From contig JAQGDQ010000051.1 in the NCBI GenBank assembly GCA_030141605.1, positions 766,177 through 830,176 on the forward strand: a stretch of 64,000 nucleotides of DNA, read 5' to 3'. The notes beneath the pieces are model-generated. The model did not search any database and was not told the DNA's origin. It saw only the letters and a program-made list of their open reading frames with translations. Within the stretch, counting starts at the first letter, position 1. Each line of letters opens with the position of its first letter. This stretch comes from Tubiluchus corallicola. Its lineage: Eukaryota > Animalia > Priapulida. Of this stretch, positions 19,101 through 45,810 are shown piece by piece. A program made the translations under genes and the position numbers.

Positions 19101-22100
19101 GCACACTGAAAAAGATTTGGATTATCTAAGGAATATTTAATATCACTATTGTATATATGAAGCAACTACGGTCCATGAGTTATTTCAGCTTCACTGGAAA
19201 TGGTCCTTATATCTGGCTACTTGAGTTTGCCCCAAAAGATAGCTAGAGATCCATGTGTTTGAAACCCCCTAAGACCATTATGATGCATTCATGATTTACT
19301 GTGTAAAAGGCCTTAGACAGGTTACAAAATACACTCAAAGCTAATTTATTCTGTTCGAAACATTTAATTATATTGTATACTATATCTACCACTGCTAACT
19401 CAGTAGAACTATGAGTTATGAAAACCAAATTGTTTATTATTTACTATGTTAAGTTTGTCTAAGTAATCTAAAATTTTATTATAAACGCCCTGTAGCTTGA
19501 CCTTTGCACTATATTATGGATGCAAACACTAAGAGTCTCATTTTAATAGTTTTATTTTTGTCAATATATGTATGAAACACCCCAAAAAGCTATATTTATT
19601 AGGGAAAACTGATTTTGCTTATTAATTGCGCTAGTTATGCTAATTATCTCATCAACTATGAAGCTCATTGATTTTACAGTAAAAATTATACAAGGACCAA
19701 CCAAGAAAACTTTGCGCACCTCTTTATAATTTTTTTATAGGGCTTACGCTGCATTCGTAAGTTTTTTTGAGCATATCACAGTTTAACTTTGCCATACTAA
19801 AGTTTCACGTTTTTTTGGAAATGGAACGAAGATTTTGCTTTTAGCTTGAGGCAAAATTTAAGAATCCAATTTAGCTCTCCCACCCTCTCGATTAAAAAAT
19901 TCTAAAACAAATCAGAAACTCAAAGTTCCCGACAACAATGATGATGTACTACTGGCCATATGTACACTAAACAGACGTGAACAGATCTTCAATCGCATGC
20001 TTGATGACCCTCTAATGATTCAAGAATAGCTAGCTTTCTTCATAATCACCATTCTCAGTTAAAATAACAATAGAACAGGATTCACAAATAGTTATATTTT
20101 ATGTATAATCAATGTTTTACATTATCAATAAGCCTGTTAAAGGTCCCATGACACTATTTTTTATGTTACTTCCGCTTATAACGTAGGCGGGATTACATAT
20201 TTTCTAACTTTTAAAACAGTTTTGATGCATACTTTTACGTGATATAGCAAGTCATTAGGAATATTTAATTTATCTTAATATAAACTTACTGTAAAACTTG
20301 TTTCTTTGATTTTTTTATCACTTGCTTGTTAACGGTATTAAATTTGAAGCTCCGCCATCATTTCGTTGTGCGAGATGAATGACGCAATTGTTGAAGTATG
20401 AAATAGTTATAGCATATAACTTTCAGTTGCCCTTCATCATTCATGGCTTTGAGCTCTGGTTTACTGATTCCTTGCGTATCAACATAGGTACCATGTTCTT
20501 GCTCAAAAAATCAATGTTGTATATTTTATGGCTTCTTTGCTGTTACTTTTAAATTGTTGTGCTTGACACAGTGATTTATGTGTGCTTATAAACCAAAACC
20601 GTCCATAAGTCGGTATAGTTAAAACTATGTTATGATGCTTCAAAGTAGAAAGCACTAAAAATTTGGTCAAATGTCGATTTTTTATTTTTTATGAAAACAA
20701 ATGCTAAATATATTGGACTTTTATGTTCTAGCATCAAATTATTAGGAAAATGTCCAAAAATACTACAAATCTAATTTTATAACTCTTTACCCAATTTTCT
20801 GTCTTGAAACTACTACTGCAATTGTAAAAAACTTGTGAATTCTAACTCCGATTGTAGTTCTTGGAAGCAGCCATTTTGCTTTGGGTTTTTTCTGTTGACA
20901 AGACCAGGTCTTTGCCAGGAAGAGCCATTACTGGATTTAAACGTAACTTCAATTTGCTCTTGTAAAGTCCACAGCAACCACACTTTCATACAGTTGCTAA
21001 GTGTTTCATAGAGACGCGACAAAAAACAATGGCTAACTCTAACCGCGATTTTCTCAAGATTACATTTTCAGTGCGTAGCCTGCATTTAGAGCCATGAGCT
21101 TGATATCAAAATGATCCTCATGAAATGGAGATTCAGGACTTGTGAATAACTAGAAAAGCTTAGTTACCGATTTATGGACGATTTTGCTATTCAGGCACAT
21201 GTATAATGATTATGATATAAGATTAAGTTTATAACACACTAATGTGAATTAGTGGTCACATATTAAGAAATGTAATTCAACCTTTACAATATGTATATCG
21301 ATTGTTAAGGCTGTACAATGAATAAGGCAGACTATAGTACTGGACATATAATCTATTTTGGCAAGCAGTGCCGGATTTACCATTGTGCTTACCTATTTGT
21401 ATCACGCTAGTCAGAAGTGAATTTTAACAGCAAGTGTCTTGCTCAAAAAATCAATGTTGTATATTGAATGTCAGTGGACCTTTAACAGCTTTAACCTATA
21501 GCTTGTGAATGCTGTATCTATGGAAAATGTAGGATCATGGATGACTTATCACTTATGTGAGTGATCAAAATTGTTGAATTTATAAAGCTGTCATCAATTT
21601 TAATGTCAAAATTCAAATTCTGCAATTAGCATGTAGGCCTTAATGAATTCAAAGCTGATGTTCCTGCAGCTAACATGGCATTTTGATTTTGTGACAAAAA
21701 TTACTTTCAAGAGTAATATTACCCCAGATTCAACCATCTCTGCATGTTAAAATTAAAACATCCATATATCCAAGGTACAGTACTCAATCAAATCTAACGT
21801 CCTCATATTTAACGATCAATTATAATTTACAAACAATTCGCACTGCACAGGTCTAAACTACCTCTACCAACACACCTCTACTTACCCAAGAACTTGACTT
21901 GACAACCCCTGTAAAACACAAATAAGTTTCGGTCATTAGTGAAAACTTTTGATTTGATATAAGACAACAATAATAGTAGGACTTTTGTAGACAGTCAACA
22001 GGGCAACAAGCCACACAATACGGGTGTCATATGATGATATGCTACAATTATCAAAAGCAACTTAAAAATTAAAAAAATACTTTCACTATTACAGGAAGTC

Positions 22101-25100: not shown

Positions 25101-27374
25101 TTAGTTTATATTTCCACTTAAGTTTTTAAGACTAATCTTATTCTGTTTAGTGCAACTTCCTAATGACATGTGCACCTAAAGACAAGCTGATGTGCACCTG
25201 CTTGACTGCCTACCCTGTGTTTACTTTCATTTTAAAACTCAATGGACAGCCATACTCCCTTCTAACTAATTAGCTGAGATTTAATTACTTCTTTGTCCCT
25301 GTCAGAAACCATGGGTAAAACAACAAGCAGAATAACAGAACAGCTGTAATTTGTTAGTAGTTAATATAGAGAACTGTCTACTGTCTAGTGTGATGCACGA
25401 TAAAAATGGCACAAATGCAAAAGTAGGCAAAAATGGCACAGATAGAAATGGGGAAAAAATTGCAAAAAAAGAACCAGCAAAAAGATTCCCAATTTGGCAC
25501 CCGCCTTTGTTCACAAAGTTTCTTGGAAATCTGTTAGATAGTTTTTGCGTAGTATCATATATGGCTTACTGGGATCATATTAGACAAAAAACCAACCAAA
25601 CAAACTATGTTGAAGCATTACTTCCTTGGCAGCATAATCATTCCCCACTGTAACTCTAACTCTAAACACACATTTTGTCCCGTTCCATTCTTATCTGTGT
25701 CATTTTACCTACTTTTCATTTGTGCCATTTTTACCTGTGCCTTTTTTTACATACATTCGTCTAATGCATTTCTTAATTTAATTTTGGGAGAAAAACAATT
25801 AATTTACAGACTTGTTTATAAGATGGGATAAAAGCAAGGTATTTCAAATAAAATAAGTGTGGAAAATGAATGTTACTTAGTATGGGTTTGGGAAATAAAA
25901 TATCATTCCAGTACTGTGTCTAATTTTATATTAATGTTTATTCAGATTTATCACACTTAGAATGTTCACGATAATCTCAATTCAATTCAAATTTTCACTT
26001 TCAGAATAACTTTCATTTGCTACATTAAATAAATCATTTCATCTGTATCAACATTGCTAGCTATTTTTTACTTCAATGTATTTAGGTAAGTGCAGTTAGA
26101 TATTAAGTCTTACAATTTTGCCAACAATTTTTCAGAATAAATACACATTGTTGTACATTTTGCAATCATTTGGTCTCTGGTTCCTTGCTGGGTGAATTAA
26201 CAATTGCATAGTAGCCCAGTGCAGTAAATGGTACGGTCCAATAGACATTTTATTTACAATTAATGAAGTGTATTTCTACTGCAAGCAGGGATGTTGCTGA
26301 AATTTTTGGCAGCATGTTTCAGAAGTTTTACTAGTATTTATCCAATTTACCTATTTATCCAAAACCGCTGAAAAATCTTGGCTAAAATAGTTCAAATAAA
26401 GCAAAAATTTCGTTTACATAACAGTTTGTGACATGCCTTTCACAGCAATGCCGCATATCTTCAGTACTGACCTCTGTGAAGTTTTGAGGTCTCCAGGCCC
26501 AAAAACCGAAATACCAAACCACATTTGAATTTATTTGAGCTAAATCGTTTTTAATTTTATAATTTACGAAATATAGGCAACAAAATATCCACAAAATAAA
26601 ATTTCTTTATTTTAATGAAGTATTATGATCTTTAAACGTTAATCATTAAGGATACTTAAATCCAAAAACCTTGTAACACATTAATTTTTCTAATGTAAAC
26701 CACTCCATCAAACTTGAGGCTCTATACTATAAAATATATGTGTGCTTGCAAGCCAAAATCATCTATAAAAAGTCGGCATAGTTAAAACTACATCATGCTT
26801 TGAAGTAGAATGCACTAAAATTTGGTAAAACGTTAACTTTTTTAAATAAAAACAAATGCTAAATATATTAGACTTTAATATTCTAGCATCAAATTGTCAA
26901 GAAAATGTTTAAAAGGTATTAAAAATTTAATTTTATAATCCCCTACCCACTTTTCTGACTAGAAACTCGTAATGCAATTGTAAAAAAACTTGTACTTCCA
27001 AACTCTGATAGTAGCTCATTTTGCTTCGGGTTTTTCTATTGCTAAGTCCAGACCTTCATCAGAAAGAGACATATTGGATTTTAACATAAATTCAATGTGT
27101 TCTTGCAAAGTCCTAGCAACCAACATTTGTATGATTGCTAAGTGTTTTGTAGAAATGTGACAAAAACAATGGCTAGCTTTAACAGCGATTTCCTCAAGGT
27201 TATATTTTTTGGTATCCAGCGTGCACCCCAACTTCAATGTGGATTATCTCAGCTTGGAAATAACATAGAGTGATGAACTTAGTATCAAAATGATCCTCAT
27301 AAAATGGAGATTCAAGATATGTGAATTCCTAGAAAAGCTTAATTGCCGACTTATAAACGATTTTGCTGTGCATG

Positions 27375-27447
<73 letters not shown>

Positions 27448-28251
27448 ATTATTATTAGTAATTTTATTATAAGTGTTATCAGTGTTTTTATCAGTAATTT
27501 TGTATCACAGCAAATAAAAGCAAACAAACAAAAAGCAAAACATTTTACTTATTTTAGAACTTTCTTTTTTTCAGTTTTAATACAAGTTGGTTTGCGAAAA
27601 TGTTTCTGTTCGGTTTCATTTCGGTATAGGTTTTTTAACTTTCGGTTTGTAAATTCAATTTTGGTAACATCCCTGACGGTAACATCCCTGTCCTTAACGC
27701 CATATAAGGGCTTAAGTTACGCCTGTTCAAACAGCTGTACATATGAAAGTATGAAATTTATTTCACATAACAAAATACATTAATATACATATCAAAAAAA
27801 TTTAAAATAAAACAATTTAAGTAGTGTGAAGAGAGTGTACAACCATTTGTTCATTTACAGACTTACTTTACTTAACAGAAAAAATAATAATATGCATGCT
27901 CTGCAGAAGAGTAGTGTAGATCTGCCCAACAATGCAAATGAGAAGGGTGTAATAACAGCAATAAAAGAGTGAAATTTAGGGAGCGAAAACAATTTTGAGT
28001 GAGTCATGAAAAATGAATTGAAATAGTTACAATTATGAATAATTATATTTAGGCACAGCAACGTAGTCAAATGATTTCGATGACTTGCGAAATAATTGTA
28101 CAGTATAGTAATTAATATCACCTTGACTGTGTGCTGATGCTCCTTTTGAGTGCAAACATATCAGATTGATGGTAAGAAAACCAATCATAAAGCTGACAAA
28201 ATCTATATGCATCTTTTCTGATTGACAACTTTCACTAACCGACACGGACAT
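1029..28251 (-). CDS. TMEM131: TMEM131 (transmembrane protein 131), 5' part; 11 coding exons, gene continues off the left edge
   Basis: Exons 28122-28251, 23010-23074, 21886-21908, 16152-16229, 13541-13664, 13231-13344, 13011-13133, 12792-12872, 11143-11287, 7129-7247 and 1029-1137 are all GT-AG and phase-compatible (1111 nt). The translation (PIRFEPPMVDFGE..GMPHLEKV..PGGNTTFDIVFLAR..LRPFLGAKIPLNSS..EMYSSGSDLHLELP..EIPPHETK..LDFGTLRT) follows the vertebrate TMEM131 N-terminus colinearly. Confidence 0.95.
3150..4700 (-). mobile_element. LINE RT fragment (decayed)
   Basis: GVKQGAPSSPLLFTLFIN, LFMMDDSVL, INQVKTKFMVING, YYYLGA motifs. Confidence 0.85.
6590..6810. repeat. minisatellite, about 4 imperfect ~50-65 bp units
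   Basis: Repeated AAAAC..GTAAATCAAGAA..TTCTGCT..GCAG.ATCTT. Confidence 0.7.
7129..7247 (-). CDS. TMEM131: TMEM131 exon 10
   Basis: PGIYAHAGILDFGTLRTHDPPQTLYLNLVNSGVKSVHIT|gtaagt. Confidence 0.93.
7704..7937. mobile_element. MITE-like hairpin element
   Basis: Perfect 26-bp inverted repeat TTTAGGTTTAAAGAGCATGGTGCAAC at 7704-7729 and 7912-7937. Confidence 0.7.
8114..8947. mobile_element. non-autonomous piggyBac-like element
   Basis: TTAA|CCCTTAGCCAA ... TTGGCTAAGGG|TTAA: CCC-start TIRs with a TTAA duplication. Confidence 0.85.
11143..11287 (-). CDS. TMEM131: TMEM131 exon 9
   Basis: EIPPHETKPVMKLNFMGRQENNHTVFVRIKTNITHSSLILPMEVEVTK|gtacgc. Confidence 0.93.
11591..11831. mobile_element. MITE inserted in a TA-rich microsatellite
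   Basis: Perfect 35-bp TIRs TGGCTTCCTGTTGAAACCTGCTATCTCCATTTTTG; (TA)n on both flanks. Confidence 0.85.
12792..12872 (-). CDS. TMEM131: TMEM131 exon 8
   Basis: VTEMYSSGSDLHLELPSGENEAPKNLW|gtaagg. Confidence 0.93.
13011..13133 (-). CDS. TMEM131: TMEM131 exon 7
   Basis: VFGTGIPNLYKLRPFLGAKIPLNSSYATLLQMHNPHNSPLQ|gtatgt. Confidence 0.93.
13231..13344 (-). CDS. TMEM131: TMEM131 exon 6
   Basis: HLSPGGNTTFDIVFLARQEGSIENTLFIHTSVGHFKYQ|gtatgt. Confidence 0.93.
13541..13664 (-). CDS. TMEM131: TMEM131 exon 5
   Basis: FIGMPHLEKVLVQNPSSENSITLHSISGSTAHFQCSFFEDK|gtaagt. Confidence 0.93.
16152..16229 (-). CDS. TMEM131: TMEM131 exon 4
   Basis: LDWAEENMGFASPIRFEPPMVDFGE, with AG/GT boundaries. Confidence 0.92.
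18900..19490 (-). mobile_element. CR1/L2-group LINE RT fragment
   Basis: HSSTELA, NLSKAFYTVNH, CADDTSIF, WFKINKLSLNLPKTKYIIF. Confidence 0.85.
20141..21481. mobile_element. Kolobok-like non-autonomous DNA transposon with a nested MITE
   Basis: TTAA|AGGTCCCATGACA ... TGTCAGTGGACCT|TTAA; AGG-start TIRs with a TTAA duplication. Confidence 0.7.
20578..21200 (+). mobile_element. ~620-bp MITE family, copy 1
   Basis: Imperfect TIRs (GTGTGCTT..CAAAACCGTCCATAAGTCGG / CCGATTTATGGACGATTTTG..GCACAT); homologous to 26738-27378 and 47036-47631. Confidence 0.8.
21886..21908 (-). CDS. TMEM131: TMEM131 23-nt microexon (exon 3)
   Basis: ttttacag|GGGTTGTCAAGTCAAGTTCTTGG|gtaagt (GLSSQVLG); bridges phase 0 to phase 2. 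Confidence 0.7.
23010..23074 (-). CDS. TMEM131: TMEM131 exon 2
   Basis: tttgcag|..AFIQTDSELRYMVDGISVHIHE|gtaact; resembles vertebrate AFVQSES. Confidence 0.85.
23265..24037. mobile_element. pogo/Tc1-mariner-type MITE
   Basis: TA|CAGTAGGCGTCGCTCAATAGACTCAC ... GTCTATTAAGCGGCGCCTCCTG. A related partial copy lies at ~53940-54433 (ends GCGGTGCCTACTG|TA), and a lone end at ~11370-11410. Confidence 0.75.
24100..24960 (-). mobile_element. decayed LINE ORF2 fragment
   Basis: Lys/Asn-rich decayed frame with KLKAGKH..D and FWEF-like remnants. Confidence 0.5.
25390..25760. repeat. inverted-repeat MITE
   Basis: AAAAATGGCACAAATGCAAAAGTAGG..CACAGATA mirrored by TATCTGTG..CCTACTTTTCATTTGTGCCATTTTT. Confidence 0.6.
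26738..27378 (+). mobile_element. ~620-bp MITE family, copy 2
   Basis: Colinear with 20578-21200 (shared AAATGCTAAATATATT..TTCTAGCATCAAATT; AAAATGATCCTCAT). Confidence 0.8.
27378..27444. repeat. (TA)n microsatellite
   Basis: Directly visible. Confidence 0.95.
28122..28251 (-). CDS. TMEM131: TMEM131 coding exon 1 (signal peptide)
   Basis: MSVSVSESCQSEKMHIDFVSFMIGFLTINLICLHSKGASAHSQ has a hydrophobic core; donor CAAG|gtgata; phase 1 joins to (G)CA-TTT 'AFIQ' of the next exon. Confidence 0.8.
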
Positions 28252-29099
28252 GTTACAAAATTTTCTTGTTTCTTTCCATTAACGGAAATGACGCATATGA
28301 TATTTTGGCTTGTATGGTAGCTCGAAAGAGCAATTGTGGTGATTTCTCCGTTTTTCGTTCTGTTCAGTTCAATTCAGCAGCGGTAATGGCGCTGACAAGC
28401 CTATCTAAATTAAAGTCTATTGTCTTAAATGCTCGCCTGCTTATATGACTGGGCATCCTATTCTCTGCAATGAGTTTCGAGCCTGATCCTTTTTGTATCA
28501 AGATGAGCAGTTACTTGCCAGTTAGTAAAAAACTGGTACTTGGTGAAAAAATATGCCTAATACTTACAAACTTTGCGACGTTTTTTCATAATATCAATGA
28601 TTAAATTTTTACCAATACCAGTATTTTGAAATAAAATCAAATTCATTCTCTCATCACTAGAGCTCCCCACATAAACATTCTTCTTCCGTTTTTGTAGGGC
28701 GAATCATAAGTGCTACATGAAGTTTGTATCTTTGAACAGATCATAGTATAAACAGCAGAATCTAACGACCTCCGTGTCTTAATTAAAAGGTACACTGCAG
28801 TGCAAAATCAAAATTTTGATCAAAATGTACAAATTTCACATTATATTTCTGTGATCCATCTTTTTGGAGCATTCGTTCCAAGTTGAACATTCACTTTTAT
28901 CCTTTCTGGCATATGTGTTGCTTCAGTAACTAATGAGTTTATTTATCATCATTACAACCAATAGGTCGTATTACAGTACAGCATAACATTGCAATTTTTA
29001 AATTTTTAAAAAGAATAAGCAAAGTAGAACATACAGCGACAGGCACTATTACACTGTTACAAGATACATGAACGAAATCAATTAAAATTAAATGAGTCA

Positions 29100-29790
29100 A
29101 AACTTAAATTTGGAAATTAAATAAGCCTATTTAAAACTGTTCTTGAATCTCTCTGTTCTGCATTTAGGTATTTCAGATGGCGGTGAGTACTATATCTGTG
29201 AGTATGGGAATCAGGCAATAGAGTGTGGATTTTATTATTTCGATTTTGGATTGATAAGAACAACTTTTTGCAAGAATTTTGGCGACGGTTAAATAAAGGT
29301 TGAAAATTAGCCAAAAGTAGAGCATTTACATAGTTTTCATTAGGAAAAATTATTTTCAATGGGCGTTTTTGAACTGTTTCTAACAAATCAGAGAGATTAT
29401 GGAAAAGAGATCCATGCCTGACAAGCGTATTCAACAACTGGCCTGATTTATCATATCATTAGGAGATGTCGTAGCTCTTTTCATTAGTCGCAAAAGATAA
29501 ATTCTTTTACTCGCTTTTGCATAAATTGAATGGACATGGATGTTCCATGTTAAATCTCTAGCTATTTGTATACTTAAAAGTTTAACCGAATCAACTTTTT
29601 TACCTTCAAATTAGAGATCGTAATACGAGGAATATCAGGACGCTTAACCATAAAAGTCACAATCATTTCATTGAATTTAGACATATTGAAATTTAAGTTT
29701 ATTGGCGTTTGCCCATTGTAATGCCTGATTAGCTGCGGTTTGAATTTTGAGATAGTCAGTAGAGGAGCCAATGTCAAATATAGTCGTGTC
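29100..29790 (-). mobile_element. LINE 3' fragment interrupted by the BEL element
   Basis: The minus strand starts at (D)DTTI of the RT core and includes LETVQKRPLKIIFP..LFNRRQ. Confidence 0.8.
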
Positions 29791-30219
29791 TGTTATGCAC
29801 ATACACGTTTCCCTACCTGTTAAATTTGGTCTTGCCCCTTTAACTGTCATCAGTCATGTGACCAGGTAGTTGGCCAGGTAGACATTACCTGACATGCAAT
29901 TCAATTGATACGATGTGAATGTTGTAGTTTATTTCTTATTGTTTTTCTTGCAAGTTATAAGTGCCAAAACTCAGGGAGACCACATGTAAGTGTCTAATTA
30001 TGTTTATTGAACTGCTTTATGCTATTAGAACAATTTCGCTGTCATTTTTTTGTACATTATAGACGATAATCACGTTAGCTAATTTAGTAATGTATCTTTA
30101 TCAAACTTATCTTTTTCATTGAAAACTTATTGCTGTAATTTATTATTACAGATAACTGATAAAACGACAATTGCTGCATATTAAACATATTTGATGTTCT
30201 GGAGTTTAAGTGTAGTACA
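29791..30219 (+). repeat. putative 5' LTR of the BEL/Pao element
   Basis: Starts TGTTATGC exactly where the flanking LINE RT fragment stops; ends ..TGTAGTACA after an ATTAAA at ~30180. There is no second LTR to confirm the 3' boundary. Confidence 0.6.
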
Positions 30220-30477
30220 GTTTTATATGCCTCGCCGGGAGTTTCATGTTGCCATTAAGCAGTGACCTTGGTTCAGGTGCAGGAAGTTTGACATGCTTAC
30301 CTGATAGCTTTGCTCATTATGGGCTTCTACAGCGTAGCTGGTTCCTACAGGTAAAGCTGCATGAACTCTGTGAACTTGGACGCGTCAGCTAATGGGCAAT
30401 AGATAACGCTTCGGTCTTGTAAGGTGATCCCAAAATTTTTGCAAAAATTGACACTGACACTTTAATTTCAATTGAAA

Positions 30478-33400
30478 ATGGCATCAGCGTTATTCACTAA
30501 AAGCGAACTGGAAAATAAAGTAGTTGAAGAGCTGAGGCAAATTCTTCGTAGTACGTCTTTCGCGGTTTCTGGCAACAAGGCAAATTTAGTACAACGAATT
30601 TTGAAGCAACAGGAAACCGGTCCTTGTATACCAGGCGCTCCAGATGAATCAGCTGATTTATCGCTACCCTCAATAGCAACTGACCAACCCATGCAAGAGA
30701 AACGTAGGAGCGAAAAGTCCACCAAATCCTCGAGTGTGACGTCGTCGAAGAAGAGTGCCAAGCTAAGAAACCAAGAGCTTATGATTAAAGAACAAGAACT
30801 CAAACTTCAAGCGATGAGAATACGACATGAACGCATGCAGAATGAGTGTAGTTCTGAGGATGAACGTGATGAAGACTGCTTTGGTTCTGCAGCTGATGTT
30901 GAGACCAGGTTAGTGGACCATGGAACATCAGACTCAAAGGTCAAAGCATGGCTAAGGTCAAGGTCAACATACACGGATCCGACAGTTAAACATACACAAA
31001 CTACATGCGAAAGCGATGAGAATTACTTGTCTGAAGCCTTTGTTACTCTAGCAACTACTGATAAGTATGCTTTGGGAGCACTTGTTCTTGCTTCTAGTTT
31101 GCGTCGCACAGGAACAATGAGATGCTTAGTCATCATGGTAACAGAGGGTATTTCTTGTGATATTATGATACTTTTGAGAAATGCATTTGATTTGGTTGAA
31201 CATGTCAGTATTATTGATAGTCATGAGTTTAAAAGGTTACAATTGTTAGGAAGACCAGAACTTAATGTGAGTTTTACTAAGCTACATTGTTGGAGGTTGA
31301 CACGATTTAGCAAATGTGTTTTTGTAGATTCTGATACAATTGTATTAGATAATGTTGATGACATGTTTAGATTTAAAGAGCTTTCAGCTGCCCCTGATGT
31401 AGGCTGGCCAGATTGCTTTAACTCTGGGGTGTTTGTTTACAAACCGAGCATTGATATGTATAATAAGTTAATGTTGTATGCTAAATCAGAGTCCTGTACT
31501 TTTGTTGGTGGGGACCAAGGATTATTGAATCAGTTTTTTAAAGACTGGTCAACTAGTTATGAAAAACATTTGCCATTCACTTATAATGCTGTCATTCAGG
31601 GTCGGTACGGATATTTACCAGCTTTAATGCAACTTGGGAAAAATGTAAAAATTGCTCATTTTTTAGGTCAACATAAACCATGGCACTATATTGAACACGA
31701 TTCGCACACAGCTCACGTGGCGCCACCTGTTGGCAAAAAAGGTTATGAATTCGACATATTCAACAAGTGGATACAGATCTTTGATACTGACGTTAGGCCA
31801 CTGCTGGAAGACAAAAATATTCGTTTGCCTATGCAGCATCCAAGCTCTGGAAATCAGTGTCTGAATGCATCAGCGTCTGCTTTTATTCCACTAGCGCATG
31901 GCAGTAATATACCGCGCGTGAATAGTTATGCTTTTAATTCTACTCAACCTACCATTTGTACTGATAATTTAAGCGACATGCCTAATCATTGCCATCCACA
32001 GAGCAATGACATGGCTATGATCATGAACATCATGCTTGAAGCACAACGTCAACATACCAACATGTACAAAGCAATACAACTTCCAATAGCGGAGTTGGAC
32101 AAATTTGATGGTAACGTTCTAAACTTTTGGCAATTCATGCGACGTTTTGAAGCCAACGTCGAGAGCTACACACAAGATGAGGCTGCGATGTTTCAAAGAT
32201 TAATGCAATTTTGCACAGGCAAAGCCAAAAAAGTTGTGGAAAGTTGTAGCTACATGGACCCCAGTCGAGCATACAAGCATGCAAAGCAGTTACTCGTCGA
32301 CAGGTTCGGCTCCTCGTTTATGGTTACTCAGGCTTGGATGTCAAAAATAATCGAGTTTGACCAAATCAAGGCCAATGACAACGAGAAGCTGCGAGAATTT
32401 GCTGACTTGCTTTTAAGCTGTGTCGAGACGTTGAAAGCAATGAATAATCTCAGCGAAATTAATACACAGACAAGTCTCGTTCAGATTTTTAAAAAGCTGC
32501 CATACAAATTCCATGATAAATGGAAAGACGTGGTGTCCAGGATAGCAAAACATGAAATCAGAAACCCCTGTGTTTATGATTTGCTAACATTCATTCAGGA
32601 AAATGCTGAAAAAATGAACCACCCTGTATATGGTAGCCTCGGCGATTGGGAAAAACCTAAACGAAGCATCTCTGCCAAAAATTATGCCACCTCTGCTAAA
32701 GCACCTCAAGTTCAAGCAAACAATGGCAAGGCGAAAACAAATCAAGAAAAGCCGCAAACCAAAAGCGCCCAATTTTGCAAGAAAGTTTGCATATTTTGCA
32801 GCTCAAAGGAGCATTCTTCTCTTGGACAGTGTGAAGCTTTTGCAGCTATGGACACCCCAGCTAAGTTGATGTTCGTGCGTAAGGAATGCCTCTGCTTTAA
32901 TTGTTTAGCGAAAGGAAAACATAGAGCAGCTAGATGTTTCAAACCGTCTTCTAGTGTTAATGAATGCAACAAGAAGCATTCTGCAAATAGGGGCAGTTCT
33001 AAAGGAAAGAAGATAGCATTGCCTATGGTCAAAGTTCAAGTACATGTACATGGAAGAAAGCCAGTTGAAGCCATGGCTCTGTTAGATCCTGGATCTACAA
33101 ATACGTTTTGTTCCAGGAAGTTGTTTGACAGCATAGGTGCTGAAGGAAAAGAGGATGTTCTTACCCTAACCACAATCGAGAAATGCCAAAGTAAAGCAGA
33201 CACTTTAGTTACAAGTTTCGTTGTTACGGACAGCATTGGTGAAAACAGAATCTTGTTGCCTCATGTTTTTGTTCGACAGTCACTGATGCTAGATACAGAA
33301 TGCTTGGCATCAGTTGCAGATGTTCAAAAATGGCCGCACTTGAAAGAGATAGCGTCATCTTTTGTTGAGTATCACGGACAAGATGAAGACCTAAGCTTAC

Positions 33401-35352
33401 TAATCGGTCTTGACGTACCTGATGCCTTGGCCCCTCTGCAAGTTAGATGTGGTCCTGCAAGCGCTCCTTATGCTGTTAAGACGAAGCTGGGATGGACGTT
33501 GAATGGGCCTATAGCGGGCTGCAAAGTACACAACGTGTCAGTAAATAATTATGTTCTGGTCAAAGAGTCTTCTGAGGCCAAAACAGATGTCTTGCAGCAG
33601 CAAGTCGAGAGATTTTGGAAAATAGATTCTATTTTGGATGATGAGCAGTATTCTAGAGAAGAGATGAAGGTCATCGACATATGGGAAAGCTCAATAATCA
33701 GAAGAGACGGCCACTGTGAATTAGAAATACCATTTAAAGGCAAAAGTCATGTTATTCCTGATAGCTTTCAGATGGCAGCAAAACAGCTCAATGGGCTCAG
33801 AAGAAAATTCACCAAGAATCCCATTCTTCATCAAAAGTACACTGACGGAATCAACGACTTGCTAAACAAGGGTCATGCAGAGCTAGTGGAAGAACAATCA
33901 GCAATTACTCCTACACATCTGACTTGGTATCTTCCTCACTTCCCAGTCTTTAACGAAAATAAACCAGATAAAACCCGTATTGTTTTTGACTGCGGTGCAG
34001 AGTGCGAAGGTATCTCACTGAACAAATTGGCTTTGCAAGGTCCAGACCTTACGAATAATTTGGTTGGTGTCCTCTTGCGATTTAGGCAGTATCCAGTTGC
34101 CGTGCTAGCAGATATACGTGAGATGTATCACCAAGTGTTTGTTTCGCCCAAGCATAGAGATATGCTGAGGTTCATTTGGTGGCCTGAGGGACGAATTGAC
34201 CAGCCTCTTCAGATACTTAGAATGACCGTGCATCTTTTTGGAGGGGTTTGGTCCCCCAGTGCGGCTTCATTTGCCTTGAAATGCACTGCATTGAACTACC
34301 AATATAGCTTTGATAAAGAAACGGTAGCAACTGTGCTTTACAATTTTTATGTGGATGACTGCCTAAAGTCAGTCGAGAATGTGGAGCAAGCATTGAAGTT
34401 AATTACTCAGCTAAAGCTGCTTTTACAGAAGGGTGGATTTTGCTTGACGAAATGGATGTCAAATGATAAACGTGTTCTCGACACTATCCCAATTGAAGAT
34501 AGGGGAAAAGGTGTTAAAGATCTAAACTTGTCACATGACACACTGCCGAATGAGCGTGCATTGGGAATAAGTTGGCAGATGGAGGCTGATATGCTAGGCA
34601 TCCATGTTAAACAAAAGGAGCATCCCAATACAAAGCGTGGATTGCTTAGTTCTCTTTCCAGTATCTATGATCCCCTTGGAATGTGTGGTCCATTTGTTCT
34701 ACAAGGAAAGAAACTGTTTCAAGAAGAATGTCGTTTACCAGACAAAACGTGGGACAGCAAGTTGGACGGCGCCATTCAGAAGAAATGGAAACAATGGAAA
34801 GACGAAAGCACACTGTTAACAGATTTCAAGATTGAGAGATCATTCATGCCTCGTGAGTTTGGTAAGGTAATATCCACAGAGCTTCATTATTTTTGTGACG
34901 CTTCTGAAAGTGCTTATGGTGTGGCAGTGTTCATTCGTCAGCAGAATGAGCTCAACGTTATCCACACTGCCTTTGTCATCGCGAAATCAAGGCTAACTCC
35001 GATGAAAGGACTGGCTATTCCTCGCCTGGAGTTAAGTGCAGCAGCTCTTGCAGCTAAACTTGAAAAGGTGCTACGGAAAGAGCTTACCATCCACATTGAC
35101 AGGTCAATATTTTGGACGGATAGTCTTATTATCCTGCACTACATACGAAATACTGTCAAGCGCTTTCATACCTTCGTGCAGAACAGGGTCACAAGCATTC
35201 TAGAGGTCTCATCACCAGAGCAATGGAGATATGTCCCTTCTGAGAAAAATGCAGCTGACGACCTATCTCGAGGATTAAATGCTTATACACTGTTAGAGTC
35301 GAAACGCTGGAAATTCGGACCTAGATCCCTGATGCTACCAGAAGATGACTGA
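30478..35352 (+). CDS. BEL/Pao polyprotein: SAP - glycogenin (GT8) - Gag/Zn knuckles - aspartic protease - RT - RNase H (premature stop)
   Basis: Open frame of ~1624 aa from the ATG at 30478 (the ORF track starts at the TTG at 30472). The TGA at 35350 lies where BEL proteins typically read 'WP', and homology continues in frame past it (..NRYSSFYRLKKSVAW). Confidence 0.92.
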   Translation: MASALFTKSELENKVVEELRQILRSTSFAVSGNKANLVQRILKQQETGPCIPGAPDESADLSLPSIATDQPMQEKRRSEKSTKSSSVTSSKKSAKLRNQELMIKEQELKLQAMRIRHERMQNECSSEDERDEDCFGSAADVETRLVDHGTSDSKVKAWLRSRSTYTDPTVKHTQTTCESDENYLSEAFVTLATTDKYALGALVLASSLRRTGTMRCLVIMVTEGISCDIMILLRNAFDLVEHVSIIDSHEFKRLQLLGRPELNVSFTKLHCWRLTRFSKCVFVDSDTIVLDNVDDMFRFKELSAAPDVGWPDCFNSGVFVYKPSIDMYNKLMLYAKSESCTFVGGDQGLLNQFFKDWSTSYEKHLPFTYNAVIQGRYGYLPALMQLGKNVKIAHFLGQHKPWHYIEHDSHTAHVAPPVGKKGYEFDIFNKWIQIFDTDVRPLLEDKNIRLPMQHPSSGNQCLNASASAFIPLAHGSNIPRVNSYAFNSTQPTICTDNLSDMPNHCHPQSNDMAMIMNIMLEAQRQHTNMYKAIQLPIAELDKFDGNVLNFWQFMRRFEANVESYTQDEAAMFQRLMQFCTGKAKKVVESCSYMDPSRAYKHAKQLLVDRFGSSFMVTQAWMSKIIEFDQIKANDNEKLREFADLLLSCVETLKAMNNLSEINTQTSLVQIFKKLPYKFHDKWKDVVSRIAKHEIRNPCVYDLLTFIQENAEKMNHPVYGSLGDWEKPKRSISAKNYATSAKAPQVQANNGKAKTNQEKPQTKSAQFCKKVCIFCSSKEHSSLGQCEAFAAMDTPAKLMFVRKECLCFNCLAKGKHRAARCFKPSSSVNECNKKHSANRGSSKGKKIALPMVKVQVHVHGRKPVEAMALLDPGSTNTFCSRKLFDSIGAEGKEDVLTLTTIEKCQSKADTLVTSFVVTDSIGENRILLPHVFVRQSLMLDTECLASVADVQKWPHLKEIASSFVEYHGQDEDLSLLIGLDVPDALAPLQVRCGPASAPYAVKTKLGWTLNGPIAGCKVHNVSVNNYVLVKESSEAKTDVLQQQVERFWKIDSILDDEQYSREEMKVIDIWESSIIRRDGHCELEIPFKGKSHVIPDSFQMAAKQLNGLRRKFTKNPILHQKYTDGINDLLNKGHAELVEEQSAITPTHLTWYLPHFPVFNENKPDKTRIVFDCGAECEGISLNKLALQGPDLTNNLVGVLLRFRQYPVAVLADIREMYHQVFVSPKHRDMLRFIWWPEGRIDQPLQILRMTVHLFGGVWSPSAASFALKCTALNYQYSFDKETVATVLYNFYVDDCLKSVENVEQALKLITQLKLLLQKGGFCLTKWMSNDKRVLDTIPIEDRGKGVKDLNLSHDTLPNERALGISWQMEADMLGIHVKQKEHPNTKRGLLSSLSSIYDPLGMCGPFVLQGKKLFQEECRLPDKTWDSKLDGAIQKKWKQWKDESTLLTDFKIERSFMPREFGKVISTELHYFCDASESAYGVAVFIRQQNELNVIHTAFVIAKSRLTPMKGLAIPRLELSAAALAAKLEKVLRKELTIHIDRSIFWTDSLIILHYIRNTVKRFHTFVQNRVTSILEVSSPEQWRYVPSEKNAADDLSRGLNAYTLLESKRWKFGPRSLMLPEDD
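31033..31806 (+). other. glycogenin-like glycosyltransferase family 8 catalytic domain within the retrotransposon ORF
   Basis: EAFVTLATTDKYALGALVL..RPELNVSFTKLHCWRLT..KCVFVDSDT..ELSAAPDVGWPDCFNSGVFVYKPS..GGDQGLLNQFF..KHLPFTYN..YGYLPA..HFLGQHKPW..IFDTDVRPLL is colinear with the animal glycogenin-1 catalytic core. Confidence 0.96.
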
Positions 35353-36360
35353 CCTCGAATTGATATGACTACACAGAAGGATTTATTACAAGGTGACAAA
35401 GAAGTGAAGCACTCTCCAGTTGTTAATACAATAACAGCGACGACAATGGATAATACACAGCATAATGTCATAAATGATTTGATGAATCGTTATTCTTCGT
35501 TCTACAGGTTGAAGAAAAGTGTTGCATGGTGTTAAAACAGTTCAAAACAGTGTTAAACAACAAAGTTGCCAAAAAGACTTCCAGTTTTCCAAATAAACTG
35601 ACTGTTGCAGAACTCGACTATGCAGAAGAAATAATCAAGTATGTGCAGAAAGGGAGTTTGCCGAAAGAATATAAACACTTAAGCACTAGTCAGAACATCA
35701 TTAAGTCTAGTTGTCTGGTGAAACTTGATCCATTCCTATGTGAAAAGCAACTTATTCGTGTAGGTGGCCGAATAAGGCATGCTGATGTTAACTACAATGC
35801 CAGGCATCCAATTGTTCTACCAAAAGGACATAAATTATCACGTTTAGTCATCCAAGATTTCCACACTACGCATGGACATGTCGGCAAACAGCATGTAATG
35901 TCTTTGATCCGCCAGAAGTTTTGGATTGTTGGAATGCGTGGTATGGTAGCTTTTAGCTGAGTCCAGACAATGTAGACTGAATAGAGCAATGCCACTGCAC
36001 CAGAAGATGGCTGACTTGCCTGTAGACAGATTGCAAAGCTCTGGAGTGTTTGCTACTGTGGGTACTGATTGCTTTGGTCCAATTATGGTAAAACGTGGTC
36101 GCTCAGAAGTAAAACGTTACGGCATCCTTTTTACATGTATGGCTAGCAGAAGCATCCATCTTGAAGTTTTGTTCACGATGACAACTGATTCGTTCATAAA
36201 GGCACTAGATAGGTTTTGCTCCAGAAGAGGTAAACCTGACAAACTAATGTCTGATTGTGGAAGTAATTTTCTGGGAGCAGACAAAGAGCTCCAAAAGTCT
36301 GTAGAATCTTGGAACACCAATGTTGTCACGGAAAACTTACTTCAGAAACATATTGATTGG
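35353..36360 (+). pseudogene. BEL/Pao pol 3' region (linker, integrase Zn finger and core), frameshifted and truncated
   Basis: Frameshifts near 35530 and 35950; motifs LDPF..LIRVGGRI, HPIVLPK, MADLPVDR, RYGILFTCMASRSIHLE, SDCGSNF; ends at HIDW before the catalytic Glu. Confidence 0.9.
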
Positions 36361-39355
36361 GTCTTGATTTGAAGACTGAGAACTTTGATGGCATGCACCA
36401 TGTCCATGCCTTCACCATTTTCCTCCCTGTCGAAGACGTTGTCGTCTCCAGATGGCAAGCTACGAAGGGCATCTGCATTGCCGTGACCTGCTGTTTTCTG
36501 GTACTTGATGTTGTAGTCAAACTGGTTCAGCCACAGGGCCCACCAAGCTAGACGATTAGCTGCAAGAAGTGGCGTCCCTTTCTTTGGTCCGAAGAGTAAA
36601 GTCAGTGGTTTATGATCAGTCACCAGTCTGAAATGACGCCCGTAGAGGTACTGGTAGAATTTCCGTAAGCCGAAGATTATGGCTAGGGCTTCCTTATGTA
36701 TTTGGCTGTAGTTCCTTTCTGCAGCTGTGAGAGTCTTGGACACATTGGCAATTGGGCGCTCGCTTCCGTCCGGATAGCGATGAAACAGGACAGCTCCAAT
36801 TTCAACGTTGGACACGTCACAAGCCAATCCCAGAGGCTTGTCTGGGTTGAAATGCACAAGGACTTGATCTAAGGATAGCACATCTTTCAACAGTTCAAAT
36901 GCTGTTTGCTCCTCATCTCCCCACTACCAGGGGACTGTCTTCTTGGTCAAGCAGTAAAGAGGCTCTGCCATAGTAGCCAGGTTTGGGATGAACTTCCCGA
37001 GGGACTGAACCGAGCCCAAGAAAGACTTCAAGCTTGAGACGTCTATAGGAGGTGGCATCTTCATGACTGCCTCGACATTGGAAACCTTTTGTGACTCCTT
37101 TGGCCGATAGGGTGTGTCCAAGATATTCCACACATGGTTGTGTGAACAAGCATTTTTGTCGATGACATCTGAGTCCTTTGTCATTCAGACGAGTGAGCAA
37201 CCGTCTCAGGTTGCTCAGGTGATCATTTGTGTCTTGCCCACTGGCGAGCATATCGTCTTGGGAGATTGCAACTCCAGGCAGATCACTGGTCAGGTTCTCC
37301 ATGATCTCCTGAAAGTAACCAAGCGCTGACTTGATTCCGAAAGGGAGTCATTGCTGCAGGAGTACCCCACGGTGGGTGCTGAGAGCTAGCCTGCATTGAC
37401 TCTCGGGTGCCAGCTTAATCTGGTTGTAGGCATCAGCAAGGTCGATCTTCGTGTAGCCATATCCGCCTCCCAGCTTCTGTATCTGTTTCCTCTGGGAGTG
37501 GCATCGGATGACAGTGGTCTTCCATCTGATCGTTGATGTCGACTAAGTAGTCACCACAGATCCGCAACTTGGGCTTATGAGTGCCCGGAGTGTGAGCTTT
37601 ACGAATCGGTACCACTGGCGTTCCATATTCGTTGAACTGGACTGGCTTCCAGACACCTTTGGTGATGCCTTCTTCGTAACCTTTGGCCAGGTCAACCCGA
37701 AGAGCAAATGGAACCGTGCCTTGTGAAAAACTGGCTTCGCATCAGACTAGAACTTTACTTCGAGCTCGAAGTCCTTAAGACACCCCAATTCTTCTTTGAA
37801 GAGATCTGGGAACTCGTCACACAGGTTATGGTAATCTCATTGCAGGGAAGCATAAGACGTGTCAGAGGTCTTTGGACATGACGTTTTACACCCTCGCTTT
37901 TGTCTTGACTCTCTATGCTTCTCTGTCCTAGAGCATTGTCCACAGAAATTCCCAGAATCTGGATAGCATTTCGTCCCAGCAGGTTCAGGTCAGGGATCTT
38001 GGTGACGATGTAGGGAATTGAGCTTTGTTTACCAGTCTTTGGATCCTTGGTCTGGCCCATGAAAGTTCCCAGCACTGGCAGGTCGTGCTTGCTGGCAGAC
38101 TCGTAGCGATGTCTGACGTCATCCAGCTTTGGCTTTTCTAGTTGTTTCCAGACCGGCACTGAAATGAAATTTCCTATGGTTGCAGTGTCAAGTTTCATCT
38201 TGAACTGTTGGTCTTGGATGTTGACGTCGACATCCAAACTAGAAGAATCTTCGAGAACTTCACCGAGGATCGCCTTGACAAGCTCATCTTTCGTGATTCT
38301 CCTCACAGACTTCCCAGATTTCCGGTCCCATTGCTGTCGTTGCTTCTTCATGTAAACAGCCTCAAAATGTCCTTTCTTGTCACAGAAATGGCACTTCGGA
38401 TCTTTGTATGGACAGTCTGTCACTTTGTGGGCCTTTCTGCAATGGTAGCACTTTGTATCCGCATCTGTGGAATTTGACTGCTGATGGTTCCTTCGTTGAC
38501 CCTTGTTCTGGTTCAGTTTGACTTTGTTGACGGGCCTGGTCTTGGAACCGTAGACAGTGTCCTTGGCAGCCTTTGCCACGTCTTCTGTCTCAATAGCGAC
38601 TTGGACAGAACAGGTGAAAGTCAGATCTTCGTCCTTGATCTTGAAAATAGCCTTCAAGACAGCTTCGTTGTTGACAGAGCATATGAATCTCTGCCTCAGA
38701 GCTTCATCTTGTGGGTCTTGGATTGAAGAAAAGTCACAGGTAGCAGCGTCTTGGCATATGCGAGCTGCTAACTCCTGGAGAGTTTCGCCTGGCTTCCTTT
38801 GCATGTCACTCCAGAACTTGAAACGTTCTCGCACAATGAAGAGTATCGGGTCAAACTGTTCCTTCATAAAGTCGACAATTTCCTCAATTGTCAGTTTTTT
38901 ATTATGCAAGTTTTTTTATATCCTTGGATGGAGACTGTTGATTTGCCAGATTTGCCAGTTGTTTGTAAATACATGTAGTCTGATTTGTTGGGAAGACTTG
39001 AGCCTTGCGTTGGTCAGCCACGAAGGTACAATATCTTGACCAGTAGTTAGGCCACAGTTCAGAAGTTGGATCAAAAGCAGCAAATGGTGGAATAGCAGCT
39101 GTAAGCACTGATGCAGGTAGAAGATGGGCGCTTGAGCTGGAATCCTCTTCAGGAGTTCGAGCCTGAAGCAGCCTCTTCATAGCATCCATATCTCCTTTGT
39201 GCTGCTGAGCCTGCCCTCTGGGTATGAATCTCCTGCGCCTGCTAATCCATCTGTTCCCTCTGGATATGAATCTGCTGCATGAGGAGCTTGAGAAGTTCAC
39301 CCATCTGCTCCGCCATCATTGCTAGGATAAACAACTGTCCACTGAGTCACCAAGG

Positions 39356-41215: not shown

Positions 41216-42240
41216 TGAACTATGAGCTATGAATTTTATTTCACACATCAGAAAATACAACATCAAACACATTAATAGATTTAAAATGAAATAATTTTAG
41301 TAGTGCGAGGTGAGTGTACGACCATTCGGTCATTAACACACTCACTTTACTTAAATGAAAAAATGATTATAATTATGCATGCTTCTGTAGATGACTTAAT
41401 AATGTAAATAAGGATGAAGTAAATAATGTAATAATAAGCAATGGTATAAGAGCAATAAACCAGAAAGTTGAGAAAGGAAAACATAATACGTAATTACGAC
41501 TTTCAGTGAGCCTTACTTAAAGAGCGAAAATTTTTAAATAGTTACGAATTTGAATTATCTGATTATCTGTCAATGTACGACTTGCTTGTATTACAATGCA
41601 CCATATTACTTACTGTATATACAATTATATATATATATACACATATATGTACCCAAATTTAAGTAGGGGAGAAGAGATTAAATTATATATTATACTTGTA
41701 TAATATAATTGATGGTAGTAATGTAGCCATCATAACTATTGAAGATAGACCATGGGAGGGGGAGGGGAATTATAACAATATAAGTGATTCATTAGCCAAA
41801 TTAATGCTACAATGATACATTCAAAATTTTTTGTATCATGACGAAAATAATGTTGATTATATGTCCATAATATGCACATAATATTATGTATAATGAACGC
41901 AGAGGGGCATTCATTGGCAAAGTATGATTCTTAATCGAAATTAAAACCAAAATAATACATTCGATTATACTATGTGAATGATAATGATACTTTTCTCACA
42001 TAAATTAATTGGTCAACTAATCAACCAGATACTCTGCTGGTTATAAGCTAAGAGCATTCAATGGCTATTTTCCAAGTGGAAACAGATACAATTATAGGCT
42101 GCGATGAATGAACAATTTCTTTTTAATTGATTTATACCCTTTATTAATAAAAGTAACAAAAGTCGTAAAGATACCTATTAGTAAAAGAAAAACATTAGTG
42201 CAAAAGACACACATGCACAAAAAAGATAAAACCTGGTCTT

Positions 42241-45574: not shown

Positions 45575-45810
<236 letters not shown>

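Follow-up and report, generated by a model that had tools for sequence, protein, structure and literature searches.

Acutely transforming retroviruses carry Gag-onc fusions; transducing retroviruses usually lose genes of their own and need a helper, and their cargo is near-identical to the gene of the host. The polyproteins of retroelements can also have accessory domains, i.e., dUTPase in some retroviruses and the chromodomain in chromoviruses, which are both parts of pol with nucleotides or chromatin as their targets. A paralogue of glycogenin, R707, is encoded by mimivirus. Glycogenin is described, in excerpts from the papers cited here, as a dimeric enzyme that glucosylates its own Tyr195 (PMC9188544, PMC7046021), that binds Mn2+ via a DxD motif and a histidine and builds chains that reach 8–12 glucoses (bioRxiv 10.1101/764241), and that has in its C-terminal GN34 peptide the means of recruiting glycogen synthase (PMC9188544). 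Like retroviruses, long terminal repeat (LTR) retrotransposons, e.g., maize Bs1, are known to transduce genes (PMC7264820). The subject of this report is a copy of a BEL/Pao LTR retrotransposon in the genome of the priapulid Tubiluchus corallicola, which has the catalytic domain of a glycogenin, a member of the glycosyltransferase family GT8, within its Gag-Pol reading frame. The copy lies in a stretch of 64,000 nucleotides (assembly GCA_030141605.1, contig JAQGDQ010000051.1, positions 766,177 to 830,176 of the forward strand), which is called the window and from whose first letter all positions are counted. The reading that we favour, and that we hold to be on balance the probable one, is that a dead, 3′-truncated BEL/Pao copy has an intron-free glycogenin in its Gag-Pol, and that the captured enzyme has been kept by selection and is predicted to be active.

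As in the transductions by retroviruses and by Bs1, the cargo of the element has the appearance of a spliced host coding segment in sense orientation and in frame with gag, which fits template switching. Unlike in transducing retroviruses, the frame of the element keeps Gag, protease, reverse transcriptase (RT) and ribonuclease H (RNase H), and the cargo is 44–56% identical to host proteins and common to diverged lineages that appear to be under purifying selection. The element resembles those with a dUTPase or a chromodomain in having an extra domain of cellular origin, apparently kept by selection, in the polyprotein of an autonomous element, but differs from them in that the cargo lies in the Gag part and belongs to energy metabolism, being a sugar transferase. 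Viruses, too, can have sugar transferases of the GT8 fold, as in the glycosyltransferases of giant viruses and baculovirus P13 (found in BFVD); however, in large DNA viruses the GT8 proteins are separate genes, whereas here an animal-type glycogenin (~50% identical) is fused into the capsid gene. A viral source of the domain was considered and rejected, as the ten best BFVD matches are only 18–23% identical.

When compared with glycogenin-1 and glycogenin-2 (GYG1/GYG2; EC 2.4.1.186), the element has the whole catalytic domain, including the DxD motif, the histidine, the Asp/Gln pair, the acceptor tyrosine and a predicted dimer, and the domain ends near the point (residue 270) at which, according to PDB titles, glycogenin was truncated for crystallisation. 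It differs from these enzymes in being without the variable linker and the GN34 tail, and in being set between an N-terminus with a SAP motif and charged residues and the Gag core. From its BEL/Pao relatives (P0124, P0129, P0136 and P0138), whose Gag core, protease, RT, RNase H and integrase are of a like type, the element is set apart by GT8 and SAP.

The plus strand has 1628 codons without a stop between 30466 and 35352, with an ATG at 30478 (open reading frame scan). The protease motif (33079–33108) and the YVDD motif of RT (34345–34365) are in the same frame as GT8, and Pfam assigns residues 1389–1553 (34630–35124) to Peptidase_A17 (PF05380, the Pao-type pol region; E 2.2e-43). BEL/Pao relatives align in frame from ~32014 to 35529, with 39–42% identity over ~1200 residues, and the closest Gag-protease relatives are 31–36% identical across residues 470–1000. 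Of the features that characterize the BEL/Pao family (Belpaoviridae), the element has a Pao-type pol with YVDD and, in the same frame, a Gag of the DUF1759 type that includes zinc-knuckle-like motifs. An initial annotation of this DNA had placed a GT8 domain (31033–31806) in one uninterrupted open reading frame with Gag, protease, RT and RNase H, between an N-terminal SAP/coiled-coil region and the DUF1759 Gag core; the order of the Pfam families in the one frame and the database matches described below bear this out.

The identity of the domain can be seen from several comparisons. Pfam reports Glyco_transf_8 at residues 193–409 (5.5e-13; 49.5 bits vs a cutoff of 24.3), and a phmmer search of PDB matches this part to residues 3–263 of rabbit and human glycogenin-1 with E 8e-82. 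Host glycogenins match the window unbroken over 31036–31806, usually from host residue 5. The AlphaFold model of the domain has a mean predicted local distance difference test (pLDDT) of 84.8 and a predicted template-modelling (pTM) score of 0.87; it superimposes on rabbit glycogenin 1ll0 with template-modelling scores of 0.85/0.87 at 50% identity, and in a structure search of PDB, ranks 1–40 were all glycogenin-1 or glycogenin-2. The domain is 44–56% identical to 292 animal glycogenins (median 50%, best 55.9%); the median identity of the host glycogenins among themselves is 60%. The same 292 sequences have 86 near-invariant columns (conserved in at least 95%), 78 of which are kept in the window copy.

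The kept columns include those of the Mn2+ ligands and of the acceptor tyrosine. The DxD motif corresponds to residues 288–290, and the columns of D288, D290 and H398 (His212) are conserved in 290, 290 and 289 of the 292 hosts, respectively. The acceptor tyrosine is Y381, the counterpart of Tyr195 of human GYG1, in a column which holds tyrosine in 291 hosts of 292. The host counterparts of K272 (K86), D350 (D163), Q351 (Q164) and Y383 (Tyr197) are likewise kept, and for all eight residues (K272, D288, D290, D350, Q351, Y381, Y383 and H398) the host columns are conserved in 289–292 of 292. Of the pair of active-site aspartates (rabbit Asp160/Asp163, numbered Asp159/Asp162 in PDB titles, according to which mutants exist at both positions of the rabbit enzyme), D350 is kept and codon 347 reads valine in the window copy, the only departure at a column without any exception among the 292 hosts. 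This codon reads Asp in contigs of three public sequencing runs (X1, X4 and X5), so the loss is private to the window copy. In a mutant study of 2005, substitution of rabbit Asp159 reportedly abolished self-glucosylation. Host Asn12 (267 of 292) is Thr in the domain of the element. GN34 has no match in the protein or in the six frames of 29000–37000, and ten host C-terminal parts gave no real BLAST match, the best (E 0.005) being within the end of the catalytic domain.

For two copies of the domain, structure prediction gave a score of 0.35, vs 0.09 for the best control; among proteins of solved structure, 21 of 30 that are pairs of one chain attain the mark for a dimer, and none of 23 single-chain proteins does. 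At least 81% of the contacts recur between model runs, and the pLDDT of the partner is 81 or more. As glycogenin dimers have already been solved, this pass may reflect memory or likeness only. From the kept residues together with this model, we predict for the domain an active dimer on Gag that uses Mn2+ and uridine diphosphate glucose (UDP-glucose) to glucosylate itself.

The fusion is also present in sequences assembled independently of the window. Four public runs from two studies contain about half of the sampled words of 30478–32600, and few of them are present in a run that carries the same species label but belongs to a third study. Contigs at least 85% alike were placed on 29500–36500: 733 from X1, 332 from X4 (which differs from X1 in sample and study), 26 from X5 and 0 from X6; the last is a possible RNA run, and its zero is no evidence on expression either way. 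Contigs of X4 extend over 30192–31303 (19 letters differ from the window) and 31513–32213 (23 differ), and one of X1 over 31001–31874 (14 differ). Both junctions of GT8 are thus bridged, and the fusion is therefore not an artefact of assembly. A second X1 contig, with 41 differing letters in 317 bases and a deletion of 227 bases (30613–30841), still crosses the 5′ junction. X5 has a gap-free contig of 591 bases in GT8 (31053–31643) with 43 differences (7.3%), and five other pieces of the element that are 10.9–14.4% different from the window. From 31822 onwards the X5 contig is less than 80% identical; compared by hand, 20 of its next 30 letters agree with the linker of the window in an ungapped alignment. 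Judged by these divergences, the GT8-Gag fusion predates lineages that are 7–13% apart, and a many-copy family of GT8-bearing elements is likely.

Comparison of the X5 copy with the window gives an indication of selection on the domain. Within 30900–32100, the 40 differences listed out of 77 fall in 36 codons, 34 of which are in GT8; these 34 comprise 25 silent and 9 replacement changes. Since 31054–31728 has 139 silent vs 536 replacement sites, the silent excess has a binomial P of 5e-11, with a replacement-to-silent ratio of ~0.1. The codon of the acceptor Tyr381 and two glycine codons of the DGGDQG motif changed silently only. For the near-identical X1 contig, 10 of whose 14 differences were listed, there are 3 silent and 6 replacement codons, and these differences are compatible with neutral decay. 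Three columns conserved in the hosts (280, 347 and 390) have a derived residue in the window copy and the host residue in the other copies. As read from these codons, the pattern is one of active lineages being selected to keep GT8 and of single insertions decaying, and the GT8 part likely serves the element. The proposal that the domain was kept as a part of Gag, made when the locus was first annotated, is thus in agreement with the bridged junctions, with the codon changes of the 7.3%-diverged copy and with the conserved columns.

As to the origin of the domain, it is uninterrupted from about host residue 2–3 and has no introns. At the position of the host start methionine (31027–31029) there is TTG (Leu188), which is one step from ATG, and the captured piece may begin at or before the host start codon. 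At the 3′ junction there is no remnant of poly(A) and no 3′ part of the host gene; the domain stops after the catalytic part. Because the domain is intron-free, starts at about the host start codon and ends after the catalytic domain, we infer the capture of a spliced host messenger RNA (mRNA). That the element had captured a host gene, as first supposed, is supported by a true glycogenin domain which is uninterrupted, is 44–56% identical to the host proteins and is absent from the 46 nearest relatives of the element. The guanine-plus-cytosine content of third codon positions is 0.31 in GT8 vs 0.37–0.43 in the rest of the frame, which places GT8 nearer to the AT-rich flanks; this, too, fits a capture of mRNA, as does the lack of a poly(A) trace. 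The comparison with host glycogenins by phylogeny that had been called for was made in part: a tree of 44 rows, from a set without vertebrates and non-bilaterians, gave GT8 an end branch of 2.22 vs a median of 0.27 (~8 times longer) and no supported grouping, and because the domain is left unplaced on this long branch the tree names no donor. Longer contigs of X5 have short GT8-like pieces at 31384–31436 and 31714–31749, with both flanks unlike the window; one flank of a short piece ends like a 3′ splice site. These pieces are probably from the organism's own intron-bearing glycogenin gene.

Table 1. Features of the BEL/Pao copy (positions in the window)
Feature	Position	Strand	Basis and remarks
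5′ LTR	29791..30200	+	Start firm, end approximate; sequence begins TGTT
Gag-Pol reading frame, BEL/Pao element	30478..35352	+	ATG to premature in-frame stop; relatives align through the stop to 35529
SAP motif, Gag N-terminus	30523..30606	+	Pfam PF02037, residues 20–47; 2.7e-6 in whole protein, 1e-7 on piece
Charged, heptad-like stretch (possible coiled coil)	30760..30846	+	Read off the translation only
Glycogenin (GT8) catalytic domain, intron-free	31027..31812	+	Pfam, PDB phmmer, fold, key residues; host residues ~2–263
Codon 347, Val in window copy vs Asp in 292/292 hosts	31504..31506	+	Rabbit Asp160 (Asp159 in PDB titles)
Linker from GT8 to Gag core, fast-evolving	31813..32103	+	Without Pfam family; similarity to P0124 begins only at ~residue 507
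Gag core (DUF1759, PF03564)	32104..32535	+	Pfam 6.2e-9, residues 547–690
Two Cys/His zinc-knuckle-like motifs of Gag	32788..32937	+	Read off the translation; matching stretches of relatives also hold Cys/His clusters
Protease motif, RT and Pao-type RNase H region	33079..35124	+	Pfam, alignment of relatives, motifs
Broken integrase	35478..36365	+	In two other frames; cut at ~36365

The element had been described as bounded by LTRs, and this has to be corrected: neither a repeat finder nor self-BLAST found an LTR pair in the window, and the element has the start of a 5′ LTR at 29791 and is cut at ~36365 on the 3′ side. The 5′ boundary can be seen in the public runs, in which 12 contigs of X1 and 6 of X4 have matches that start at 29791 behind sequence which is unlike the window and mutually different (agreement 0.46 and 0.52); these different flanks are from many insertion sites for at least the LTR. 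The summed depth of contigs across 29734–30201 is ~30 times that of the more internal sequence, and there are contig starts at 30162 and 30192. The missing second LTR is a defect of a truncated copy, not an argument against the BEL/Pao family. The frame ends (35350–35352) with a stop within conserved pol sequence, which is premature because the alignment of the relatives runs through it. Of the integrase, Integrase_H2C2 (3.8e-7) and rve (1.7e-5, below the Pfam cutoff) are both off the main frame, and the matches of the relatives shift frame near 35530–35600 and 35950. The homology of the relatives stops at 36360, ~200 residues before their integrase ends, and the DUF5641 part is missing; contigs of X4 and X5 continue past 36365 unlike the window. 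The window copy, in which the frame stops early, the integrase is broken and cut short and the 3′ LTR is missing, is thus dead and 3′-truncated.

At ~36365, a Gypsy-type element adjoins the BEL/Pao copy (36342–39315, minus strand; RT_RNaseH_2 5.6e-33, RT_RNaseH, RVT_1), the RNase H end of which faces the broken BEL integrase. As both elements are cut at the same point, the border is a joint formed by rearrangement or deletion rather than a clean nested insertion. Elsewhere in the window there is a second, different BEL/Pao RT fragment (53094–53564, minus strand), which is 54% identical to the GT8-bearing element and 47–53% identical to its relatives, and of which a stretch of 55 bases is 87% identical in DNA to 34220–34274. 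A dispersed repeat of ~650 bases is present in three copies that are 73–81% identical (20574–21205, 26734–27384 and, inverted, 47032–47630), a further pair of repeats (27750–27910 and 41228–41394) is 77% identical, and there are long microsatellites of (TTA)n at 45577–45806 and (AT)n at 27378–27444, with 77 and 33 copies, respectively. A scan of 19 other frames gave a single weak match to RVT_1.

The N-terminal part of Gag, in which GT8 lies, differs between the element and its relatives. PF01501 (GT8) is present in 0 of the 46 nearest Gag-protease relatives, SAP is absent in the four relatives that were scanned with Pfam (P0124, P0129, P0136 and P0138), and the N-terminal 182 residues have no BLAST similarity to P0124. 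SAP may be a second acquired module of Gag. The same four relatives have 156–535 residues ahead of the conserved Gag core; in P0136 and P0138, the 408 and 535 residues before the DUF1759 core are without a convincing Pfam family, and residues 154–234 of P0138 have a sub-cutoff match to FRG1 (E 0.05), with no stretch passing alone. In this BEL/Pao clade, the N-terminus of Gag may generally be a place where additional modules are taken up. An earlier idea, that an ancestral Gag had an N-terminal coiled coil followed by a conserved motif, shared with P0124, and that GT8 came to lie between the two, was dropped, as the N-terminal similarity is nil and similarity is found only from ~residue 507.

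The same architecture was looked for in protein libraries. A word-indexed protein search with residues 150–720 gave 262 matches; none of the 120 listed extends over more than 53% of the query or is a fusion of GT8 with Gag, 119 having PF01501 only and 1 being without a family on record. The same search among shorter proteins gave 4007 matches, with a retroelement family in 0 of the 120 listed. In an exhaustive search of representatives, the best 150 of 10146 match the GT8 part only (top score 298.6 bits); ten long or odd matches had GT8 only when scanned with Pfam; ESM Atlas gave no usable match; and a scan of JGI metagenomes gave 19 pattern matches, none of them a relative. P0168, the top match among the shorter proteins, was considered as a fusion and rejected, being a fish glycogenin model with an internal duplication. 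No description of a retroelement-borne glycogenin was found in the literature, as far as titles and the beginnings of abstracts tell. The supposition in the initial annotation that no described family has such a cargo agrees with the matches listed from the protein libraries and with this part of the literature. Because eukaryotic repeats are poorly represented in libraries of predicted proteins, and with Repbase and Dfam outside the search, the absence of GT8 with Gag elsewhere is suggestive and not proof.

The steps by which such an element could have arisen and could work are as follows. A spliced host glycogenin mRNA would have been captured by template switching during reverse transcription; the GT8 dimer would build a short chain of glucoses on its Tyr381 and, hence, an α-glucan on the N-terminal part of Gag; and the domain would thereby help the spread of the element. 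What the glucan would do is less certain than that the enzyme was kept. That the glucosylated N-terminal part of Gag tethers Gag or the particles to glycogen, or nucleates glucan on them, is put forward tentatively, as falling short of probable. It is more doubtful still that a living BEL/Pao lineage glucosylates its own Gag and seeds a glycogen-like glucan on or around its particles, as a self-made tether or coat, which might, e.g., let it reach the germ line together with stores of glycogen or escape the surveillance of the host. The missing GN34 tail speaks against simple mimicry of the host primer.

Several observations weigh against an active enzyme kept by selection. The window copy itself is non-functional (premature stop, broken integrase, no 3′ LTR), and has Val347 and seven further departures at near-invariant columns. 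The selection count rests on the 40 of 77 differences listed for X5, the 5′ junction of X5 is uncovered by contigs, and the 3′ junction is a comparison of 30 letters by hand. Among the X1 pieces listed there are only two versions of GT8, and contig depth is not a copy number. The very long branch of GT8 (2.22 vs 0.27) could in part reflect a changed function, and the absence of the GN34 tail would weaken the usual route from primer to glycogen particle.

The main rival to this reading is that GT8 was kept as a structural module in which catalysis is dispensable, the dimer pairing the N-termini of Gag or binding a host partner or glycogen. This is an unlikely explanation, although one to be taken seriously: the dimer model passes its controls (0.35 vs 0.09), the branch is long, 8 near-invariant columns are changed in the window copy, host Asn12 has become Thr and the GN34 tail has been lost. 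On the other hand, all the catalytic and metal-binding residues that were examined are kept, and in X5 the acceptor tyrosine and DGGDQG change only silently, neither of which a pure scaffold would need; moreover, the pass of the dimer model may be memory, since glycogenin dimers have been solved.

Could the domain instead be a one-off or low-copy passenger, i.e., a piece of host mRNA that drifts neutrally without a role? The window copy is dead and has damaging private changes in the domain, and the domain is present in 0 of the 46 nearest library relatives, as would be expected of such a piece. Yet a drifting passenger is hard to reconcile with 25 silent vs 9 replacement codons among the differences listed for X5, with junctions that are found both in other samples, as contigs, and in a lineage ~13% diverged, with a frame that is open across both junctions, or with 78 of 86 near-invariant columns kept at only 44–56% identity to any host, and it is considered improbable. 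As regards the one-off passenger named in the initial annotation, the domain is not near-identical to any of the 292 host glycogenins aligned, and diverged copies carry it with mostly silent changes.

A related explanation, and a slightly less probable one again, is that the signal of selection comes from a domesticated host gene derived from the SAP-GT8-Gag N-terminal part of an element. The depth of X4 bears on this, being 500–810 over 30192–32213 vs ~60–80 over pol, and at 32101 the X4 contig lacks one base; possible reasons for the excess are an artefact of the library or a 5′ part that is amplified or expressed on its own. The uncovered 5′ junction of X5 would also fit a gene of this kind. 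Against it, the near-identical contigs of X1 have even depth (926, 1053, 1089 and 1389), the domain in the window is in frame with a complete set of Gag, protease, RT and RNase H, preceded by an LTR start whose flanks are many and different, and the excess in X4 comes from a library whose kind is not given, with an adapter-like loose end at 31437 that points to odd depth. Lastly, that a retrocopy of host glycogenin was wrongly joined to a BEL/Pao element in assembly, a danger named when the locus was first annotated, is hardly credible, as nothing speaks for it beyond the general risk in repeat-rich assemblies, while independently assembled contigs of other public runs cross both junctions, the frame is open across both, and the 3′ junction has neither a poly(A) remnant nor a 3′ part of the host gene.

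With an enzyme kept by selection as the preferred reading, what is found here is a retrotransposon of the autonomous kind in whose Gag an enzyme is a new cargo under selection, the pickup of host sequence itself being already known. To our knowledge, there is no earlier report of a sugar transferase of metabolism as cargo of Gag. The known extra domains of retroelements act on nucleic acids or chromatin, and here there is a metabolic enzyme in the capsid part. If the domain is active, the capsid protein of a retroelement would be covalently marked with a glucan, and this would be a natural case of a glycogenin that works without the tail that binds glycogen synthase. Transposition would then be linked to the biology of glycogen, i.e., to where Gag is located in the cell, to which tissues are permissive, and to how the host perceives the particles.

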